Shown: piece by piece, positions 15,272-35,935 of the stretch
Layout of the letters: each line of letters starts with the position of its first letter
How positions within the stretch are numbered: position 1 is the first letter of the stretch
Assembly: GCA_001606155.1 (NCBI GenBank)
Contig: LODT01000028.1
Coordinates: 406,735 to 470,734 of the forward strand
DNA: 64,000 nucleotides
Direction: 5' to 3'
Source: Tieghemostelium lacteum
Taxonomy: Eukaryota
Made by a program: the position numbers and the translations under genes
Notes under the pieces: model-generated
The model's input: only the letters and a program-made list of their open reading frames with translations
Told to the model about the DNA's origin: nothing
Databases searched by the model: none

Positions 15272-16972
15272 ATGACCCATACTAGAGAGGAGCTCGAAAA
15301 GAAACTCTACAAAGAGATTGTAGCTATAGCTAAATCTCTTGAAGTCAAGGCATCTGGTAAAAAAGATGAAATAATAGATAGAATTTTATCTAGTGGTTCT
15401 GAGGAATCAAGTGAAAAGACTACAACTACCACTACAACCACCACTAATACTACAAGTACACCTTCTACAAAGAAACCAGCACCAAAAAGAAAGTTAGAGA
15501 CAAAAGAAGAATCTGAGGAAGAAGAATCTGAAGAGGAAGTTGTTGAAGAAAAAGTAAAGAAAGCTGCCGCCAAACCTAAACCAGCTGCCAGTAAGAAGAA
15601 AGCTGCTGCTAAGAAAGCTACTACTACCCGTTCTACTAAGAAACATAAGAAAGAGGCTGAAGAAGAAGAAGATGTTGAAATGGATAAAGAAGATGAAGAA
15701 GAAGATGGTGATGAAGACATGTCAATTGATCCAAATAATAATAATGTAAAGTCAAAGTCTCCAGACGTAAAACAAACTGTTTCTGCTAAGAAAGGTCCAA
15801 AGAGTTCTATTGAGCTAAAGAAATGGCATACTAAAGGATCTATTGTCTACTACCTTGACGAATATATCAGTAAACCAAAGATTGCTGGTTTCGATTTGGA
15901 TTACACCATTGTCAAGACTAAAAGTGGTAATGTACATTCTATAAACGCTAATGATTGGTTATGGTGGAACACTGTAGTCCCAGAGAGATTAGTTGAAAAG
16001 TACAAGGAAGGATACCACATTGTCATCTTTTCTAACCAAGGTGGTATTAAATCAGGTTCTCAACGTGATAATGTGAAATACAATGCCATTACTAAGAAGA
16101 TCTTGGCCATTGCTGATGAACTAAAGATCCCAATTGGTTGCTTTATAGCCACTGATGATGATATCAACAAGAAACCAAGCAAGAGCATGTGGGATTTCAT
16201 GTTGGAGGAATGTACCGATGGTTCTGATATACCAATTCAAATATCCGAAAGTTTCTATGTTGGTGATGCTGCTGGAAGACCAGAAGGATGGAAACCTGGT
16301 GCCAAGGCTGATTTCTCCAATTCTGACTCAGGATTTGCCAAAACTGTTGGTATGGAATTCCAGACCCCAGAGCAGTTTTTTCTCGACGAGCCACCTTTTG
16401 AAGTAAACCTTTCTGAATTAATTCCTGCTGCACCACGTACTGGTGCAGTCGTTGAAGGTGGCTCGATTACTTGTAAGGAATTTGAGATGGTTATCTTTGT
16501 AGGGTTCCCTGCCAGTGGCAAATCCACATTTGCCCGAAAACACTATGAACCTGCCGGCTATGTCATTGTCAATGGTGACACACTGAAATCAAAACCTGCA
16601 CAGATTAAACTCGCAAAACAAAGCTTAGCAGAAAAAAAATCTGTTGTAATTGATAATACCAATGGACTGAGCTCCACCAGAGCTGAATGGATTGCATTAG
16701 CAAAACAATATGGTGCTTCTATTAGATGTTTTAGATTTAGAACCTCCTATGATTTAGCTATGCATTTGAACTATTACAGGGAGAGAACATTGAATGTCAA
16801 ACACATCTCAGAGATGGTCTATCGTATTTTCAACAAAAACCTTGTAGAACCAACCCTTTCTGAAGGTTTCAAAGAAATCAATTTTGTAAATTTTATTTTA
16901 GATATAAAACCAGAACAAGAGTCCCAATATTTCATTGCAAATCCCAAAGCAAAATCAAAAAAAACTAAATAA
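15272..16972 (+). CDS. pnkp: Polynucleotide kinase 3'-phosphatase (PNKP) with an N-terminal SAP motif and a Lys/Glu-rich linker
   Basis: HAD phosphatase motif FDLDYTIVKTKSG..FSNQGGI..VGDAAGR, followed by the P-loop kinase VGFPASGKSTFARK. The N-terminal LYKEIVAIAKSLEVKASGKKDEIIDRILS fits a SAP helix-extended-helix. Confidence 0.9.
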   Translation: MTHTREELEKKLYKEIVAIAKSLEVKASGKKDEIIDRILSSGSEESSEKTTTTTTTTTNTTSTPSTKKPAPKRKLETKEESEEEESEEEVVEEKVKKAAAKPKPAASKKKAAAKKATTTRSTKKHKKEAEEEEDVEMDKEDEEEDGDEDMSIDPNNNNVKSKSPDVKQTVSAKKGPKSSIELKKWHTKGSIVYYLDEYISKPKIAGFDLDYTIVKTKSGNVHSINANDWLWWNTVVPERLVEKYKEGYHIVIFSNQGGIKSGSQRDNVKYNAITKKILAIADELKIPIGCFIATDDDINKKPSKSMWDFMLEECTDGSDIPIQISESFYVGDAAGRPEGWKPGAKADFSNSDSGFAKTVGMEFQTPEQFFLDEPPFEVNLSELIPAAPRTGAVVEGGSITCKEFEMVIFVGFPASGKSTFARKHYEPAGYVIVNGDTLKSKPAQIKLAKQSLAEKKSVVIDNTNGLSSTRAEWIALAKQYGASIRCFRFRTSYDLAMHLNYYRERTLNVKHISEMVYRIFNKNLVEPTLSEGFKEINFVNFILDIKPEQESQYFIANPKAKSKKTK

Positions 16973-23864: not shown

Positions 23865-24866
23865 ATGAAAAAAAAAGCTGGATCTATAGGTACCACTTTT
23901 GAAGGATGCCTAAGTATGAGTAGTTTTGCTGTAAATGAAATGATATCATATATTGAAAGACAACCAAATGAACCCTCTGATTTACACAAAGAGCATCAAA
24001 TTAAAGATTACAAAATCTCAGTTGGAAAAGATTCAAATTGTAACGTAAAATATCTCACTGGTAAAATTACATGTCCTAGACAGAATGCATCTTCTGGAAA
24101 TAGATTTCCATGTGCAGAAGACATTAGTAAACTTGTTAAATATTACCATCATCCAAGTCTAGATATCACCAATAACAAAAAAGAAACTATTCAAATACTA
24201 AAAGAAAACCATTATATTTGGCCTACTATTAGACAAGATTGTGAAGAAAAAATTAGTCATTGTAAACAGTGTATAAATCCAGTTCAAGAACTACAATCGG
24301 TAACAATACCTATACCCAATGTTCCTCCCACTCAAAGTTCCTCACCTCCGCATGCTGCTAATAACTTTATAGTCACACCAACACCAACATCACCCACCAA
24401 ACCACTTTTTCCAATAAAACCATCAATACCCATTAAAAATGAAATTACACCAGACCCTTACAATAATAGATATCAACCATATATAACTACACGAAACAAC
24501 CAACACCAACTTATGCAATCAACATCTTATAGACACAATCCAAATGACTTAAACCCAATGCCACATCATAACTATCCTCTTTATTATCATCCTAGTAACC
24601 ATAACAATAATAGCAATGGTTTTAGTGGAACACCTCAGAGACAGGTAAGGTCTCAAACATCAACAGAAATGCCGTTAGCCTATGTTGATGATATCAAAAG
24701 AAAGGTAAAAGTGGAAGTGGAGGAAAAGATGAAAGAAATCTATACTGCCAAGACCAAAATTCACATGGACAAGATTATTTCTCTTGAAAATCAAAATTCT
24801 CAACTCAAAAAGAATCTAACTGTAAAATTAGAATTATCAGAATACAAAAAGATATCAATAACATGA
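23865..24866 (+). CDS. Hypothetical protein with a degenerate retroelement integrase-type (H2C2-like) zinc-finger region, a P/N/H-rich linker and a C-terminal coiled coil
   Basis: 333-aa ORF. ISKLVKYYHHPSLDITNNKKETIQILKENHYIWPTIRQDCEEKISHCKQCIN follows the integrase N-terminal pattern H..H..KT...L...Y.WP....D.......C..C. No RT, RNase H or integrase core lies nearby. Confidence 0.45.
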   Translation: MKKKAGSIGTTFEGCLSMSSFAVNEMISYIERQPNEPSDLHKEHQIKDYKISVGKDSNCNVKYLTGKITCPRQNASSGNRFPCAEDISKLVKYYHHPSLDITNNKKETIQILKENHYIWPTIRQDCEEKISHCKQCINPVQELQSVTIPIPNVPPTQSSSPPHAANNFIVTPTPTSPTKPLFPIKPSIPIKNEITPDPYNNRYQPYITTRNNQHQLMQSTSYRHNPNDLNPMPHHNYPLYYHPSNHNNNSNGFSGTPQRQVRSQTSTEMPLAYVDDIKRKVKVEVEEKMKEIYTAKTKIHMDKIISLENQNSQLKKNLTVKLELSEYKKISIT

Positions 24867-26562: not shown

Positions 26563-27952
26563 ATGAACACAATGAAACACATCCTTTTCAATCAGAGATC
26601 CCACAGCTCATCTCTAACAGTATCAATTAAAAGATACTATTGCACAAATAACAAAAATAATAACACAACCATCAGTAAACTCAATAATATACCATCATCT
26701 CCTTTGAATTCCATTCTAAAATACACCAAATCAAAACCTACCAAAAATATAATAATAAACGGTCACAATCAAATCTATAAAAGCAAAGAGCTAATAGAAA
26801 GGGGTTACTACAACAAAGCAGAGAAAAGTATATTATATGGATTTAGATATATGCAGAGGTAAGAAATAAATTATTTCCCAAAAAAAAATCCCATACAAAT
26901 CTCCCACCAAAAAATTAAAAGATTTTACTAACATTATTATATGATATTTTGTATTTAGTCGTGTTAACCCTTTATCATCAATATTTACTATTCCAAATCA
27001 TGCTGTAGGCCTGGTGTCTTACAAGATGGGTAAATTTTCAATAGGTGAACAATTTCTAAAATATTCTTTGGATAGAAAAGATGATGACACTGAGAAATCT
27101 ATATTTTTCACAAGACACCAAATAGGAGCTACCAATGACTTGGGTTTGACATTTTTGAGACAAGGTAGATCTCAAGAGGCTGAGGAGACATTGTTCAAGG
27201 CATTGGACATGGCTAACAAATATGAGTTATTCGATTTACTACCTACAATATATTCAAACTTGGGGGAATTTTATAAGGAAATGTGCTATTATGATAAAGC
27301 TGCTGAATATCACGGTTTAGCACATAGTCAAGCAAACTATAATAAGGATCTTATTAATGGTGCTGATATTGATATTTCCAGAATCTATTTGAATCGTGCA
27401 CAGATTCTCAGAATTTCAGGATCATTAGAAGAATGTAAGGTATTCTATGAACAGGGTGTAAAACACATGTTACAGTATTTTGACAAGATGGGGTACAGTA
27501 AGAATAGAGTACCCAAACACAATGACTGGGCAAAATCATTGATTGAGTTTGGTCATATCTATTATCAGGAGGGACAATACGAAAAGGCATTGTTGAAATT
27601 CCAAAATGCCAAAACTATCTTTGAGGAGATGGGTAATGCCAATACACTAGATGCATTGTTTAATCAGTTGAATATTGCATTGATTCTCAAACATTTCAAT
27701 CCCACACAATTAGACTCTAATGTGCAATTAGACAATATTCAACAGATTCTACAGAGAATTGAAAAACCTTATCAAGAGTTGAAACGTGAGAAATATATGT
27801 CACGTTTCAATCGTATCGATACTGTTATTCAATCTCTAAAAGAACAAAAATTCTTTAACTCTTTAGGAGAAAATATTGCTGCAAAAAAGAATTCAGAGAA
27901 AAACATTAAATTAATTGAACCACAACATTTTCAATTAACTTGTTTCAAATAA
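26563..27952 (+). CDS. TPR-repeat protein (kinesin-light-chain-like TPRs), two exons
   Basis: Exons 26563..26858 and 26959..27952, with intron 26859..26958 (GTAAGA..TATTTAG, 100 nt). The phase was checked against track ORF 27014. TPR-like repeats include ATNDLGLTFLRQGRSQEAEETLFKAL, IYSNLGEFYKEMCYYDKAAEYH and EFGHIYYQEGQYEKALLKF. Confidence 0.7.
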
Positions 27953-28067: not shown

Positions 28068-31000
28068 TTAAATTAATAGTTGTTTGAATTTTCCAGCTGT
28101 GATAATTAATTTAATTAGGTGGTCTTGAATGTTCAATTTACTAAGAGCAATTCTAGCTTCAGAGATTTTAAGTTTGGAAAGAAGTTCAGTAATCTGAGTT
28201 CTTGGTTGTTTTATATTGCTAAGGAAGACAAAGACTAGGAGAACTAATAGATGAGATAAGTTGGTACCTTGGGTTGCAGCAGGATTAAGACCGATCAATT
28301 GAGCTTCAGTAATACCAATGTTATTGTACAATGTAGCTTTATAGATGACTGGGAAAACACCATTTGCTAATATACTCTTAAGAGCAGTAGCTACAATTAA
28401 CTGTTGTTTTAGGTGTTCTGGATCTATTTGTTGTTGATCAGATGCTTTAAGAGCTGGTACCACTGGGGCCTTCATTGAACCTGATGCTCCAAATAATGCC
28501 TGTTTGAATGATAAACCCTCCGATGATGAGATAGAGGAAGATAAGGAAGATTTGGAGGAGGATGGAGTTGGAGCTTGTTGGACCTTGTTGAGAGACCATG
28601 ATCGCATTTTGGGTTCTTCCTCCTCCGGTTCCCATTTTTTTGACTTTGCAGCTTTGGAGTGTTTTTTATTCTTTTTTTTGGAGGTTTTGAGTTCTTCTTC
28701 ATCACTTATGTCATCACCCCAATTGTTTTTGAATATATCAAATGGTTGATCTTTTTCTACACTTTTTTTCTTTTGATCTTTTTCTATACTTTTTTGAACT
28801 GGTTCTTCAAAACTATCAAATAGAGAGAATCCCATGTCTTCATCGGAAGATTCTATCATTCTTTTTTCTGATTGTCTCATGGATAATGGCTGAGCTGGTT
28901 TGCTTGTTGATACAGTTGTTGGTGTTGGTGTTGGTGTAGTAATTGGTTCCAATGGATAATAACCAAATAAATCACCATCAGCGAATCCCATGTCAGATTC
29001 GTCTTCTTCTGGCATAGATTTTGCATAATGAGCACTTGTTGATTCTTTAGAATTGGTTCTTGAAACTGGCATACTGTAACCTCCACCATCGTCTCCAAAT
29101 AAGGAGAATCCCATATCATATTCTTCATCTTCTTCCTCTTCTAAATATTTTTCTTTCACCTCCTCTTGTTTAGCTAAAGGTTTTACAGAAGCAGCAGCAG
29201 AATAGACAGTACCTGATATTTTCGAATCAGATCTACCTCCGAAACCACCTTCACTATCCCAGTCTTCATCGTCGTCATCATCATCATTTTCTTCATTACT
29301 GTCATATTCTTTTCTGACAATAGATAGTCTTCTTGTTGACAATCTTGAAGAAAGAGTATCCATAAGAGCTGTTTTGAAAGACTTGTCATTTTCATTTTTA
29401 ACTTCTTTTGGAACAGATTTCAATGTCTGACCAGATTTAATAGACGATAATAGAGATTCAGTTGAAGACTCTTTTTTATCTTCAATAACTTTAGTTGGAA
29501 ATAAACTACCATGTTTCTTTCCACCACTTGGGACACCGCCAGTTGTAGGAGGTGTAATAGAGGATGATCTAGGTGATGGTGTGGTTGAAGAAGATGGTGG
29601 TGGAGGTGGTGGATATGATTGTCCTCCTCCGCCTCCCATGAAATACATAGCACCAGGAGCCATAGGTGGTGGTGTTGGTGATGAGTCCCAACCTATATGA
29701 GCTGCATTTTGGAATGAAGTTGGTGCACCAATTACTAAATCTTTATCATTTAATTTATCTTTCATAAATAGATCTCTCTTTCCCTTTTCTTGTTTAACTG
29801 GTGCCATTTGTTTTGGTGGAGGTGGACCTGAACTTACAGATGGTCTTGGAGGTGGAGTTGATGGTAATGGAGTGAGTGATTGTTGTGGTAGACCTCCAAA
29901 GGATGGCTTTGAATTACCAACTGAATAGAAAACTTGTTGAAAAGATGGTGTCTGTGGTGGACTTTGTACAGATTGTTGCTGTGGTAGACCTCCAAATAAT
30001 GACGTTGAAGGAACTGGGGCTCCAAATGCACTTGTTGATCCAAATTTTCCAGTAGCAGTAGAAGTTGAAGCTGATTGTACGACTGAGAAGCTTTGTTTCT
30101 GTAATTGGTGTTGTTGTATTTTTTGTGGTTGTGGTTGTTGCTGATATTGTACAATTGGAGTAGTTGGTGTATTATAAGGAAGTTGTTGCACAGTTATTGG
30201 TGATGGAGATGGAGGTGGAAGTGAGTTTGTAGATAATTTCTTTTTAAATGAAACCATTCCACCTTTGGATTTACTAAGCTTTTCTTTGTCAACAGATCTT
30301 TCTAAGACACTAAATGAAATATCACTTTTGATATCATTATTGTTATTATTATTGTTATTGTTATTGTTATTGTTATTGTTATTGTTATTGTTATTGTTTG
30401 AAAAATTATTTTTTAAATTGTTGAATGCTTCTCTTAAATTATTACTAAGTGATCTTTTTTTTTCTCCACTTTCTCTTGATCTGGAACCTCTACTTTCGCT
30501 CTCTTTGGGACTTTCATATATCTTTTTATCAATAACCTCAAGCTCACCAGATCCTAAAATGTCATCAACACTATTTTGAGGTGAATATCTAGAAGCACCA
30601 TTGCTCATAGTGGAACCTATTGTACCACCTCTACCTCTAGATCTACCATTGCTGCCACCTCTACCTCCATCTTTACCTCTTAGACTTACATTATCTCTAA
30701 TAGCATTTCTTGAATTTAATGCACCTGATAAATAAGAATCAAGCTCAAGGTCTAAAGAGTCAAAATGTTGATGTGCTTCTAATGATGGTTTTTCATCAGA
30801 TATGGGAATGTTTAATTCAATTGCACATAGTGATTCACTTTGTTCTTCAACTAGGTTTGCTAAATCTTGGAAAATGTCTTTAATTCCAGACATATCTGAT
30901 TGAAGTTGGAGGAGAGATTCATTTCTTTCATGGAGAATTTCATTATAATCCAACTCTTCTTTAGAAAGTTTGTAGGGTCCATATTCTTTTTCTACATTTC

Positions 31001-34000
31001 CAGTTGGATGAGGTCTATTAAGTTCCTTTACAGTTGGTGTGACCGTTTCAACTTTAAAAGTTACGGATGGTTTCATTGGAGATTTAATCCATTTATCTAG
31101 ATTGTTCTTTAACTGTTCTTGTTCATGTTCCTCATTTGAATCTCTGATAGAGGAACGTTCTTGTTCAGATTTCTTTCTTTCCAAACTCAACTCCAAGAGC
31201 TCTTGTTCATTTACAATAGTTGTAAGATCATCTCTAATCTCTTGCATAATCAATGTACTATCTGTATAAGAGTCCTCAGAAAGACTATCCAGTTCTGAGA
31301 TGGCATTGTCAAATGCCTCTTTAAGAATATGAGTTGATTTCTCAACTTGACCTGTTCTCTTATAGAATTGTCCTGCAAATTTACTAGCCCTTAATCTGTG
31401 TGGATGTGTTGATGGTAATGAAGAGAGTTTAGATAAGAGATTGTCAAGTTTTCCCGAGATCTTCTCATCCAATGATTTCTTGGCAATATCATTTTCTTCA
31501 AATTGACTTTGAGTGTCATAGAGTTGACACTCATCTTGAATTAAAGCAATTAGATTCTCATCAACTGCTTGGTTCTTTGGAACGGATTGTTCTATCAATC
31601 TCAATAGACTCTTAACCTGATAGATTAAATCAGTCTTTATCTTCAACTGACCTCTTTGAGCTTGTTTTAATTTTACAGGTGTCAATTTAGTTGGAGTTGA
31701 TACTTTAGTTGGTGTCTTTTTAGGTGTTGAAGTTGAGGGTTGTTGTTGTAAAAATACAGTTGGATCAAATTTAACTAATTCAATCTTGTCAAGAACCAAG
31801 TGTTTAATAGTTTCATTGATCATTTTAATCTCCTCTGTAGTATATTCTCCAAATTGTTCAGTAATTTGGTGGAAAATATTGATTGAATCTTGGTATTGTC
31901 CATTGGCATGCATGGATTTAGCCACATGAACTACTTGGTCTCTCTGGGAGAGTAAAGTGGAATCATTTGGATCTTGATCAGAGCCCTCAGCTTTTTCTTG
32001 CCATTGAATGTATGGTAATGTATCAATAACAGTTTGACTGACAATCTCTTGAATGGATGGTATATCTTTACGTTGAATTTCATTCTTTTCACGTTTTTCA
32101 ACAGCTACAAAACTGGTGAATTGTGTTACAATGGAATATTTAATACTGAGATTGATGATATCTTGTTTCTTTCCAAGTTTAATAAGGTCATTATCAAATT
32201 TTGAATTTGAATAGGTACCATCATTGTATTCTCTAATCATAGATCTTGCTGCTAATCTATGTATAAGACTACCACGAATGAAACCAATTTCAGGAGTGTG
32301 AACTGAATTTGTGATTAATCCACCACCTGGAGCTTGTGCAACGAGAGTAGCTCTAGTAGCAATTCCAGAGAATGCATATATCACTTGTCTTTCTTTCTTG
32401 AAGATTGAAGTAATGATATTAGGTGACTGAATAATCTTATCTGTAGAATCAAATTTAACTGAAATATTTGACATGGATGGTTGTAATGTTCTCTGAAGTT
32501 GATTGATAATCTTTTTTGGATTAGGTCTTTTGTTTGGTACAACAAACTCTGAATAACCACCACCTAGACGAGAGATGGATTTGATGAAATGTCTAGAAAC
32601 ATTTTCACCAATACCAAATGTAAATAATTTACAATAAGGTGATGCCTTTTTAACAAGTTCTTGCACTAAAGTTTCATTGGCAACGTTACCATCACTGTAT
32701 AGAATGATATTGTGTGGATTATTAGGTTTGGCATTCTCAGCTAACAAGAATAGTGATTGTAATGGTTGATGTAGTTGTGTGCCACCATAATGAGGTTTCA
32801 AACGATTGATATGATTCCAAGCCAATTGTAGATTGATTTCAGTTGGAGGTACATCTTCAACGAATAACCAATCAAATTGGTCACCAAACTGGACAATGTT
32901 AAAGAGTACTTTGAAACCACGAAGATTGGAAACAGTGAGTCTAAGAGCTCTTAACATATCCTCAAATGCATCACCAGCCATAGATGCTGAGAGATCAACA
33001 AGTAATGTCAAATGTGTTAGAGAATCCTTGTCATTGTCGATATCTAATTTTGGATAGAATGCCAACATGGATGCATGGTGACCTTGATCATCAACTTCCA
33101 CCCACATTCTAGGTGAATATGGTTCCTCAAGACCAATAAGTAACTGGAAGTTCTTACCAAGACTACTGTCTCCACTTGTGAGTTCAACAGTAGCTTTAGT
33201 GTTAGTCTTCTTTACACGAATTGGATGAGTTGGAGATGTTAATTTAACTATATTATAAGGCATTTCAACACCAACTTGTAGAGTCAAATCAAGGTTTTTG
33301 TCATCACCAATATGGGTAGTAGAAGTTGTGTTTTGAGTTACAGTACTACCACTTTTAGCACGTTGTTGAGGACTGATAGATGATGGTAAAATAAATGAAA
33401 TATCCAAACCATCCATTGACAGCTCTGTTATATAAGTTATCTTTATCAATACATCAGCTTGTGGTGGAAGATTACCAACTGAAACTGAGAAAACATCTGG
33501 TTTATCTTCATCCATTAAATAAGCACCATCACCTCTTTCAACAGCTTCCCTATACTCTCTATGTGCTTTCTCTTTCTCTTTACATTCACCAACTACATGT
33601 TTACCATTGATGAATGCTTCGAAACCACAAACTGCAGCCATTTCATCTAAAGGAAATACATATTTTGCCTCAATTTGAGAACTTGATGAATTCTTGTAAT
33701 GTTGATAGATAACAACCTCACCAATTAAATCCAGAACTTTAGCACGTACATGAACATCTTTTAATGGAATATCAACTTTTCCACCAGATGCAATAAGACC
33801 TACTTCCTTAGGTTCCTCTTCCATATCCTCAGGTTTAGAAGATGGTTGGATCTGGTCACTTACCTTGTCTTGTGGTAATGTTAGTTTTGGAGCACTTTGT
33901 GCACTAACTGCCATAGCTTGAGGTACTGCCAAAGGAGTTGATGTAGTTCTTGCATCAGGCATCTCAAATTCAACTAGATACAAGAGTTTTTGTTGTTTAG

Positions 34001-35935
34001 GATCATAGATTACAATTTCATCATCCTGGAAAGCACTTTGTACAGCAGATGTTGATGCAACACCTTGTACACTTTGGTAGCCTTTTGGAGGGCTGTCTAA
34101 TTGGTATTGATGTTGAGTGTATTTCTTTGTGTTACCCAAGGCAGCTTGGCATACAAACATGTATTTTCTTTGTGAGAAATCGGATCTCTTACAGTACTGG
34201 GTTGAAGTTGAACTCTTTAGACCAAAGTATATACCACTACCAAGGTAACCAATATCTCTTCTGCCTGTGGATAGAGATGTTGATACATTAGGTGTAAGCA
34301 AACCTCTTGACAAAATACCCAAGACATTACTAGGGTTACTACCATGATAGAGTGTCTTAATGTTAGGAATGGAGAACTGAAGATTCAACTCTTCGTTTCT
34401 CTGTGTTGAGTATATCTCCTTGATTACAATATCAGGATTCTGTTGTTTAATCTGGTCATAGAGTTTCTTGTGATCCTTGGAGTTATCAGAAAGACATTGA
34501 ATATTACAACGTAATGCACGATAACGTGTATCCACTATAGAGGTTGAAGAAACACCCAAAGACTCACCAACATTCAGTATATCCTTAATCAATTGAATGC
34601 AATCTTGAATATCCTGAAGTTCAGATACAATCTGAGGAAGATTTCCAGAGGCTGTCAACTGAGCAATCTTGCATTGCTTAAGTTGAGGTAAAGCCTGATA
34701 GACTTCATTGAATAGTTGTACAGTTGTTGGTGATGACAAAAGTGGTTTACCATTATCGGTTTTCATCAGAGTTGCCAATTGGAAGAGTGACAATTCAGCC
34801 TTCTCCACTTGAACCAATGTTATATCACCAAGGTCAGATTTGATTGCACCTTCAGGTGACAATGTCAATTTAGCCTTACACATCAGTTTAGTACCTAGAG
34901 TTGACATGGCTTCCTGATAAATACGTTCAATAAACTTTTGAATAGGTTCGGGAAGTGATGATTTCCCAGAAGAAGACTGTAAATTTGAACTTTGTTGCAG
35001 TCGATCTGAACCTACTCTAGCTGAAGAAACTTGAATTTTAGTGTATTGTCTATTGGAGGTGTACTCTAAAAATATTTGATTATAAAGTTTGAGAGCATCT
35101 TCAATGGTAGATGATGAAACCCATTCTTTAGTTTGATCAACACTACCAGTTGTACCATAGTGCATAAATACTCTATAGAAACTTGGTAATCCTGAATCTG
35201 AAGATCCACTATCACCTCCAAGTGATATAAGTGACAATGCTTTACCAGCTACGTGCAACTCCAAACACATAAACTCTTGTGTATCCAATCTATGAAGGAT
35301 ATTGTATTTAATAATGTGGTATTTATCTTCTGGAAATTGTGATCCAAGATCACTGGACTGCACAGCATTAGGTTGATATTTAACTTTCTTTAACTGTTCT
35401 AATGAAAAACCACTACTACTCTTGTTGTCACCATTTTCAAGAATATCAGAGAAATTCAATGACTTGTAATGAAACTCTTTAATATTATATTGAGATACTA
35501 ATGAATACTCACTAGTTGACAATAAAGTTCCAAATGAAATGGAATCATCAAGATATCTCTTTGAAAGTATTGGTATATTTAATTTTATAGCTTTTTTGAT
35601 ATTAAATGATAATGAATCCACATTTATATCTTTTTTATCTGAATCTGTTTCAGATACTTCTACTTGTTGTTGTTGTTGTTCATCTGCTTTAACTAAATCA
35701 TCAAAATCACCATTATAAATAAAGTAATTAACCTATTGTAAATTAAAGTATTAGTAAAGTAAATAAAATGGTCATTTTCAATGGTGTGTTGGTTCTTAAG
35801 TTAACTTACTTTATGATTTAAAACTGCAGAAACTGTTCCTTTATATTTTAAAACAAGATCTTGTAAAGCTTTTTTAGCTTTGTAACCTTGATTGGTACAA
35901 TCTAAAAAAAAGGTTTGATGTTCAAATATTGACAT
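28068..35935 (-). CDS. Giant (~2,596 aa) vault-PARP/PARP4-like poly(ADP-ribose) polymerase (BRCT-WGR-PARP-VIT-vWA) fused to a long C-terminal extension carrying a WASP-like CRIB/Pro/WH2/C/A module
   Basis: Exon 1 is 35810..35935 (MSIFEHQTFFLDCTNQGYKAKKALQDLVLKYKGTVSAVLNHK, BRCT start). The intron is 35733..35809 (GTAAGT..CAATAG). Exon 2 is 28068..35732, one uninterrupted ORF. The WGR domain is at about 35030-35330. The PARP catalytic domain is at about 33960-34370, with the H-Y-E triad in LYHGSNPSNVLGILSRGLL, GSGIYFG and DDEIVIYD. The VIT domain is at about 33400-33790 and the vWA domain (LLVDLSASMAGD) at about 32480-33020. The C-terminal motifs are listed under findings. Confidence 0.85.
30336..30398. 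repeat. (GTTATT)n microsatellite encoding a ~24-residue poly-Asn run in the PARP gene
   Basis: Perfect hexamer repeats on the plus strand, translated on the minus strand as NNNNN... within SNNNNNNNNNNN..DIKSD. Confidence 0.9.

Follow-up and report, generated by a model that had tools for sequence, protein, structure and literature searches.

A PARP4 orthologue of Tieghemostelium lacteum with a VCA-like module among the peptide motifs of its disordered linker

Gene structure and the PARP4-type N-terminal part

We analyzed a stretch of 64,000 nucleotides from Tieghemostelium lacteum (assembly GCA_001606155.1, contig LODT01000028.1, positions 406,735 to 470,734 of the forward strand), which is called the window below. 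A PARP4-type gene lies in the window as a single minus-strand gene at 35935..28068, possesses one intron, and encodes a product of 2,596 amino acids (aa). Behind the folded N-terminal part, the product carries a long linker with peptide motifs, among which are a WH2 (V), a connector (C) and an acidic (A) motif as in the VCA module of WASP proteins. The positions of the features are collected in Table 1.

The first exon (126 nt) begins with the ATG at 35935 and is followed by an intron of 77 nt with the borders GTAAGT..AG. The second exon (7,665 nt) is an uninterrupted frame of 2,554 codons, and its stop is at 28068. Because the DNA is only ~30% GC, an open frame of this length cannot be chance. 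The GC content is 29.9% in the window, 23.5% in the intergenic parts and 35% in the coding sequence, a composition that does not fit D. discoideum. A hidden in-frame intron or an artificial joining of two genes was considered and rejected. Since the sole very AT-rich stretch of exon 2 is a poly-Asn tract, there is no hint of hidden introns, and the two-gene artefact is also countered by the same architecture in five independently annotated genomes. The tract is a run of 21 Asn (aa 1821-1841), encoded by an AAT repeat at 30336-30398 (-), and is typical of dictyostelid coding microsatellites. The gene model thus predicts a single gene that spans both the vWA and the VCA regions. An exact database look-up of the 2,596-aa product and of the ATG-started product of exon 2 gave no identical entry.

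In the N-terminal part, the BRCT, PARP, VIT, VWA_3 and VWA matches all exceed the curated cut-off of Pfam. For the catalytic domain, the closest matches were human PARP4 structures. In the alignment with structure 8sx1 (E 4e-38), H505, Y543 and E614 fall on the H-Y-E triad of human PARP4, and the surrounding segments (this protein/human PARP4) are LYHGS/LLHGS, GSGIYF/GSGIYF and DDEIVIY/DDEFVVY. When the N-terminal 1,259 aa were used in a word-index search, animal PARP4 proteins were matched with E ~1e-159; animal PARP4 only, and no dictyostelid protein, was returned. By BLAST, the animal PARP4 matches reached E ~1e-170 with 31-35% identity, collinear over aa 1-1290. Three characters of PARP4 clade 5, namely an N-terminal BRCT, a mid-protein PARP domain with H-Y-E, and VIT then vWA after the catalytic domain, are all present. 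Judged from its sequence, the N-terminal region of ~1,290 aa is an unambiguous orthologue of PARP4 (vault PARP, clade 5), and the intact triad predicts that the enzyme is catalytically competent.

An earlier note on this DNA had described one open reading frame of 2,596 aa with no intervening stop, and our gene model reproduces the same length. Every motif listed there was found at, or a few bases from, the place where the note had put it. The domain order BRCT, PARP, VIT, vWA of PARP4/vPARP and the intact H-Y-E triad, both claimed in the note, were confirmed by the Pfam scores and by the alignment to the human PARP4 structure, respectively. A WGR-like segment, also claimed, was not recovered: the Pfam scan gave no WGR match and only a weak match to PARP_reg (E 0.08).

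After the vWA domain, a divergent 14-3-3 domain was detected. The positions that correspond to R127 and Y128 of 14-3-3 zeta are occupied by Asp and Thr in this protein (the alignment left out K49 and R56). Since these residues are replaced, canonical phosphopeptide binding by the 14-3-3 domain is doubtful. Between the 14-3-3 domain and an all-helical domain at the C-terminus, there is a non-globular, disordered linker of ~900 aa with abundant runs of poly-N, poly-P, poly-D/E and S/T.

The VCA-like module and its conservation

An exhaustive HMMER search with aa 1397-2596 as the query gave five full-length orthologues of 2,327-2,504 aa. These are the proteins of Cavenderia fasciculata (F4PYX9), Synstelium polycarpum, Dictyostelium purpureum (F0ZTJ5), Heterostelium album (D3B7W6) and one further EukProt species. 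All five have the common order BRCT-PARP-VIT-vWA-14-3-3, linker and C-terminal domain; along the 1,290 aa of the folded N-terminal part, their identity with the T. lacteum protein is 55-62%. The word-index search gave no match for the C-terminal half, probably because low-complexity words swamped the candidates, and only two unrelated short proteins for the segment from vWA to 14-3-3.

In WASP proteins, the VCA peptide module binds actin and the Arp2/3 complex. As in the T. lacteum protein, a proline-rich region is followed in four of the five orthologues by a WH2 motif (LLxxIxxG...LK), then by a C helix (L..L.S.LS.RR) and last by an acidic run that ends with Trp. When the V-C-A regions of five sequences (the T. 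lacteum protein and orthologues) were aligned, L-L-x-x-I-x-x-G, RR and W were invariant. The WH2 motif and the acidic tail with its Trp form islands of conservation in a linker that is otherwise unalignable.

A profile was built from the five aligned sequences and searched against all PDB sequences. Chains of N-WASP were matched with E 1.4e-6 (3m3n_W) and E 1.1e-5 (6uhc_H), the latter collinear over V, C and A. A WAVE1 chain (3p8c_D) was matched with E 7.9e-5, from the WH2 motif through "SRRIAVEY" to the final Trp. The profile also matched the WH2 chains of Spire, WAVE2, VopL and MIM, and the E values of the WH2-containing chains ranged from 1e-6 to 1e-2. With the T. lacteum sequence on its own, the Pfam WH2 profile scored 12.8-13.0 bits, which is below the cut-off of 23.1. 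Among the Pfam profiles, WH2 ranked first for two of the five orthologue fragments; it ranked second for a third (P0020, from H. album) and for the T. lacteum fragment.

The structure predicted by AlphaFold2 (AF2) contains two helices, at the WH2 motif and at the C region, with a predicted local distance difference test (pLDDT) of up to 81. No globular fold was obtained, and the predicted template modelling score (pTM) was 0.24. Two helices in a non-globular chain would be the expected appearance of a VCA in such a model. The protein was also shuffled 20,000 times and searched with relaxed patterns, which had been defined post hoc: the WH2 pattern appeared in 0.34% of the shuffled proteins, the C pattern in 0.13% and the acidic-W pattern in 0.8%. 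The CRIB pattern (see below) appeared in none of them, 1.7e-6 being expected from composition. We regard the orthologue-derived VCA profile as stronger evidence than the shuffle test. These results suggest that the WH2-C-A module is more than chance, that it is homologous in pattern to the VCA of N-WASP and WAVE, and that it has been kept across Dictyostelia.

The linker motifs may instead be functionless by-products of a fast-evolving low-complexity tail, in which case the likeness to VCA would be convergent or accidental. The composition of the linker, with its many homopolymeric runs, fits this explanation, as do the individual Pfam scores of WH2 and CRIB, all of which are below the cut-off. 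However, the order of V, C and A and their key residues have been kept although the folded domains are only 55-62% identical and the linkers cannot otherwise be aligned. The profile matches to N-WASP and WAVE1 (E 1e-6 to 1e-4) and the rarity of the patterns in shuffled protein also speak against it. We consider this explanation very unlikely.

Thus, the proline-rich, WH2, C and A elements that the earlier note had placed in the frame of the PARP are borne out by the conservation in the orthologues and by the profile matches to N-WASP and WAVE1. Their fusion to the PARP is conserved in other dictyostelids: the full V-C-A is present in four of the five orthologues, and C and A in the fifth. As for the domain families named in the note, PARP, VIT, vWA and BRCT exceed their cut-offs, and WH2 and PBD fall below theirs.

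The CRIB-like core, the other linker motifs and the C-terminal domain

The CRIB-like core just before the proline-rich stretch was matched by Pfam PBD at profile positions 2-18 of 59 only, and positions 19-59 were unmatched. The best PDB matches of LVIGAPTSFQNAAHIGWDS were WASP (IGAPSGFKHVSHVGWD; E 0.24) and N-WASP (E 0.65), neither of which is significant alone. The first conserved His of the motif is replaced by Asn (FQN for FxH). The core is followed by a Pro/Gly-rich stretch, at the place where WASP has its autoinhibitory helices. When the CRIB fragment was searched against the five orthologues, no significant match was obtained; in each of them the motif has decayed or is missing. The CRIB was therefore rejected as a feature of the family. 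D. purpureum has "VIGAP" at the equivalent relative position, and H. album has IGSPSNF-[NNNNNNRDGS]-FQHIG; these may be relics of an ancestral CRIB. The core in T. lacteum is probably a lineage-specific or decaying remnant.

These data bear on whether the protein is a true nucleation-promoting factor gated by Rac or Cdc42, in which the GTPase would bind the CRIB and free the VCA, so that branching by Arp2/3 is coupled to ADP-ribosylation. The elements CRIB, poly-Pro, V, C and A do stand in the order of WASP, the core has WASP and N-WASP as its best PDB matches and a PBD match of E 0.011, and possible relics are found at the equivalent place in D. purpureum and H. album. On the other hand, the first conserved His is Asn, and the helices of the GTPase-binding domain (GBD) that would bind C are unmatched (PBD positions 19-59), hence there is no basis for autoinhibition. 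Moreover, the CRIB is absent or broken in 5/5 orthologues while V, C and A persist, the VCA is not C-terminal, and there is no WH1 domain. Because the autoinhibitory GBD is missing and the CRIB is not conserved, gating by a GTPase in the manner of WASP is not expected, and we hold a Rac- or Cdc42-gated factor to be quite unlikely. Of the CRIB proposed in the earlier note, the core motif stands, whereas the Pfam threshold, the first His, the rest of the GBD and the conservation do not support it. The Rho-GTPase-controlled actin nucleation built on it is not upheld, since the GBD helices are unmatched and the CRIB is absent or decayed in the five orthologues.

Three tails of the ribosomal P-stalk type are located after the VCA, and they are conservation islands as well. 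Their pattern is [D/E]n-DMGF-x-LF, and their best PDB matches are the tails of P0, P1 and P2. By pattern, every orthologue possesses 1-4 copies, and the D. purpureum protein reaches the Pfam cut-off. Translational GTPases, GCN2 and ribosome-inactivating toxins all dock on the P-stalk tail. Its display by a vault PARP would be unexpected.

The partial Qa-SNARE motif also matches syntaxin 1A, syntaxin 13 and Sso1 with E ~2e-3. The match covers 47 aa and ends at a Pro-containing stretch. No hydrophobic membrane anchor follows, and the Pfam scan reported no SNARE. A full Qa-SNARE, with layers -7 to +8, the zero-layer Gln and a membrane anchor, is thus not present. The SNARE fragment gave no significant match in the five orthologues, and the motif was rejected as a family feature. 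It seems that a syntaxin fragment was captured in this lineage alone.

All six linkers contain FG dipeptides at 4-8 times the frequency expected from composition. Heptads (YSPTSPS) of RNA polymerase II's C-terminal domain (CTD) were found in 2-7 copies in the linker of four of the five orthologues and in no copy in the T. lacteum protein. The heptads of H. album, located between the WH2 motif and the C helix, were matched by Pfam RNA_pol_Rpb1_R with 36.6 bits. These motif matches suggest that the VCA is one of several peptides in a string copied from unrelated hub proteins.

Such a string may be a bait or decoy array, in which copies of host hub peptides (WASP VCA/CRIB, P-stalk tails, syntaxin SNARE, RNA polymerase II CTD heptads, FG repeats and 14-3-3) capture toxins or effectors of pathogens, which are then ADP-ribosylated or sequestered in vaults. 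That a single disordered region contains copies of several hub peptides unrelated to each other agrees with this idea, and so does the turnover of the repertoire: the CRIB and SNARE motifs are found only in T. lacteum, the CTD heptads in four orthologues, and the WH2 motif has been lost in one. Ricin and Shiga toxin are known to dock on P-stalk tails (PMC9823235, PMC5322317). In vertebrate PARP4, the equivalent disordered region is a proposed target-recognition region under recurrent positive selection, for which binding of pathogen factors has been proposed (PMC4038475). However, all six species have kept the C/A region and the P-stalk tails, and an endogenous role would explain this just as well. 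We consider the bait array unlikely. If it is true, vaults and PARP4 would have a concrete mechanism in innate immunity, which would match the positively selected disordered exon of vertebrate PARP4.

The last 125 aa form an all-helical domain with a confidently predicted fold (pLDDT 79, pTM 0.74). Human PARP4 anchors in the vault with its C-terminus, and its long disordered regions extend into the lumen (PMC12280208). The C-terminal domain in T. lacteum resembles the vault-bound fragment of human PARP4. Because hhalign and Foldseek gave no match for this domain, its homology to the vault anchor is likely yet unproven.

The earlier note had read the gene as a PARP fused to a WASP. The fusion itself is retained, but the 14-3-3 domain, the Qa-SNARE motif, the P-stalk tails, the FG repeats and the C-terminal helical domain had been overlooked. 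With these, the picture shifts to a PARP4 with a multi-motif linker.

Table 1. Positions of the PARP4-type gene, its domains and its linker motifs in the window, with matches in orthologues
Feature	Protein position (aa)	Window position	Strand	Remarks
Whole gene		28068..35935	-	exon 1 35935..35810; intron 35809..35733; exon 2 35732..28068, stop included
BRCT domain	2-118	35505..35932	-	spans intron; Pfam BRCT 23.0 bits (cut-off 21.3), BRCT_2 25.3 bits
PARP catalytic domain	~476-632	33963..34433	-	Pfam PARP 76.6 bits; 8sx1 E 4e-38
VIT domain	699-809	33432..33764	-	Pfam VIT 126 bits
vWA domain	950-1105	32544..33011	-	Pfam VWA_3 59.7 bits, VWA 48.9 bits
Divergent 14-3-3 domain	1313-1546	31221..31922	-	Pfam 47.1 bits (cut-off 33.2); 14-3-3 zeta structures E 7e-17
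Partial Qa-SNARE motif	1642-1688	30795..30935	-	zero-layer Gln kept; syntaxin 7 1gl2_B E 3.8e-6
RGG box RGKDGGRGGSNGRSRGRGG		30624-30680	-	in linker
FG-repeat stretch	1936-1990	29889..30053	-	KFGS, SAFGA, SLFGG, PSFGG; FG-nucleoporin-like contexts
CRIB-like core LVIGAPTSFQNAAHIGWDS	2041-2059	29682..29738	-	Pfam PBD 16.5 bits, E 0.011, below cut-off 21.3
CRIB-like motif IGAPTSFQNAAHIG		29691-29732	-	motif of the earlier note, located
Proline-rich stretch, including PPPPPP	2060-2105	29544..29681	-	longer proline-rich regions at same place in orthologues
YPPPPPPSSS		29586-29615	-	inside proline-rich stretch
WH2 (V) motif ESLLSSIKSGQTLKSVPKE	2134-2152	29403..29459	-	conserved L-L-x-x-I-x-x-G; profile matches WH2 chains; predicted helix
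C (connector) amphipathic helix KTALMDTLSSRLSTRRLSI	2162-2180	29319..29375	-	invariant RR in five sequences; aligns with N-WASP/WAVE1 C regions
Acidic (A) region with invariant Trp NEENDDDDDDEDWDSE	2188-2203	29250..29297	-	Trp in 6/6 proteins; aligns with WAVE1/N-WASP A
Acidic-Trp core motif NDDDDDDEDWDSE		29250-29288	-	motif of the earlier note, located
Three ribosomal P-stalk C-terminal tails EEYDMGFSLFGD, ESDMGFADGDLFG, SDEDMGFSLFDS	2240-2349	28812..29141	-	Pfam Ribosomal_60s 44.4 bits (cut-off 28.1), 3 stretches
C-terminal all-helical domain	2472-2596	28071..28445	-	conserved in 6/6 proteins; candidate vault (MVP)-anchoring domain
CTD heptads in orthologues	P0014 1734-1768; P0016 1632-1680; P0017 2023-2036; P0020 1991-2032			

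Elsewhere in the window, the adjoining open reading frames are uninformative: the one on the plus strand at 27014-27952 encodes a TPR protein, and the others are without a Pfam match. The frame at 23865-24863 (+) has a weak Integrase_H2C2 match (E ~1e-3, below the cut-off) and may be a retroelement remnant. A PNK3P-domain protein of 566 aa at 15272-16972 (+) is encoded exactly on Logan contigs of ~1.8 kb from runs ERR3252995 and ERR3252991. They have the size of a gene and could be transcripts from the same species.

Interpretation and comparison with known systems

We propose that this protein is a dictyostelid PARP4 whose disordered linker serves as a string of binding motifs, which tether hub machines, including actin and the Arp2/3 complex, to the enzyme or to the vault. 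We give this reading a probability of about 0.55. The WH2 helix would bind an actin monomer, and the C helix together with the acidic-Trp tail would bind the Arp2/3 complex. Actin and Arp2/3 would thereby be tethered to the ADP-ribosyltransferase and, via the C-terminal domain, possibly to vaults. The tethered proteins might be substrates or cargo, or they might seed local branched actin. The P-stalk tails would recruit translational GTPases likewise.

Several points weigh against this tethering role. The Pfam WH2 score of every single sequence is only 11.8-18.4 bits against the cut-off of 23.1, and the boundaries of the VCA alignment were set by eye. One orthologue (P0017) keeps C and A without a recognizable WH2, and in H. 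album (P0020) about 50 aa of CTD heptads are inserted between V and C; therefore, a strict V-C-A geometry is not maintained. An internal VCA would also be unusual for class I activators. Furthermore, if the protein is lumenal in the vault like human PARP4, its VCA would be unable to nucleate actin at membranes.

Parts of the picture have been published. From D. purpureum, D. fasciculatum and P. pallidum, Perina et al. (2014) described PARP4-like proteins that carry VIT and vWA and to which a 14-3-3 domain is appended (PMC4245714). In Salpingoeca, Capsaspora and Acanthamoeba, PARP4-like proteins have actin or actin-binding domains, which the same authors regarded as a link between PARP and the cytoskeleton. 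WH2 or VCA in dictyostelid PARP4 is not named in the text of that paper, and in the literature on WH2 or VCA with PARP4, vaults or Dictyostelium, we found no description of the module. The earlier note had stated that no described protein couples a PARP to a WASP module. For the VCA, this agrees with the literature that we found, but the family and the PARP4-actin fusions had already been published. Thus, the PARP4-like family with 14-3-3 is already known, and the candidate VCA-type module in its linker appears to be new. In D. discoideum, proximity labelling with the major vault protein (MVP) recovered several PARPs, TEP1 and 69/79 ribosomal proteins (PMC13100048). A vault PARP with exposed stalk tails would at least agree with this result.

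What PARP4 and vaults do has been obscure for decades. The tail of this orthologue names candidate partners in the form of recognizable peptide motifs: actin and Arp2/3 from the VCA, and translational GTPases or other binders of the P-stalk from the three tail copies. In the relatives, factors that bind the CTD and transport receptors that bind FG may be added. These candidates are directly testable in the genetically tractable social amoebae. The finding extends the earlier hints of a connection between PARP4 and actin, which came from actin fusions in other protists, and suggests that vertebrate PARP4 recognizes partners through its fast-evolving disordered region.

The protein is like vertebrate PARP4 in its BRCT, mid-protein PARP with H-Y-E, VIT and vWA (~33% identity, collinear over 1,290 aa) and in the long disordered region ahead of a C-terminal helical domain. 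In contrast, the vertebrate PARP4 found here is without the 14-3-3, VCA, P-stalk-tail and SNARE motifs, and its linker is ~360 aa as compared with ~900 aa. The "third type" PARP4-like proteins of dictyostelids (F0ZTJ5, F4PYX9 and D3B7W6) are direct orthologues that have the VCA, the P-stalk tails and the C-terminal domain in common with the T. lacteum protein. Unlike them, the T. lacteum protein alone has a good CRIB core and the Qa-SNARE motif, and it misses the CTD heptads that four of the five orthologues carry.

As compared with ribosomal P0, P1 and P2 (tail SDDDMGFGLFD), the linker has three near-exact copies of the tail, with an acidic run before each. Unlike in these ribosomal proteins, the copies are internal, with no free C-terminus and no stalk dimerisation domain. 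In Salpingoeca rosetta, Capsaspora owczarzaki and Acanthamoeba castellanii, PARP4-like proteins similarly combine a clade 5 PARP and the actin system in one polypeptide (PMC4245714). By their published description, they carry whole actin or actin-binding domains, whereas the VCA of T. lacteum consists of short motifs.

With WASP/N-WASP and SCAR/WAVE, the protein shares a proline-rich region that is followed by a candidate WH2 motif, by an amphipathic C helix in which an Arg is conserved, and by a Trp-containing acidic stretch. Unlike these proteins, it is without WH1/EVH1, SHD and WAHD1 (Pfam scan of the N-terminal part) and without the autoinhibitory helices of the GBD, and its VCA is internal, inside an enzyme, with ~390 aa downstream of the acidic region. 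Because WH1/SHD/WAHD1 and the GBD are missing and the VCA is internal, the protein does not belong to the WASP family. Nevertheless, it may act like the WASP family in binding actin and the Arp2/3 complex.

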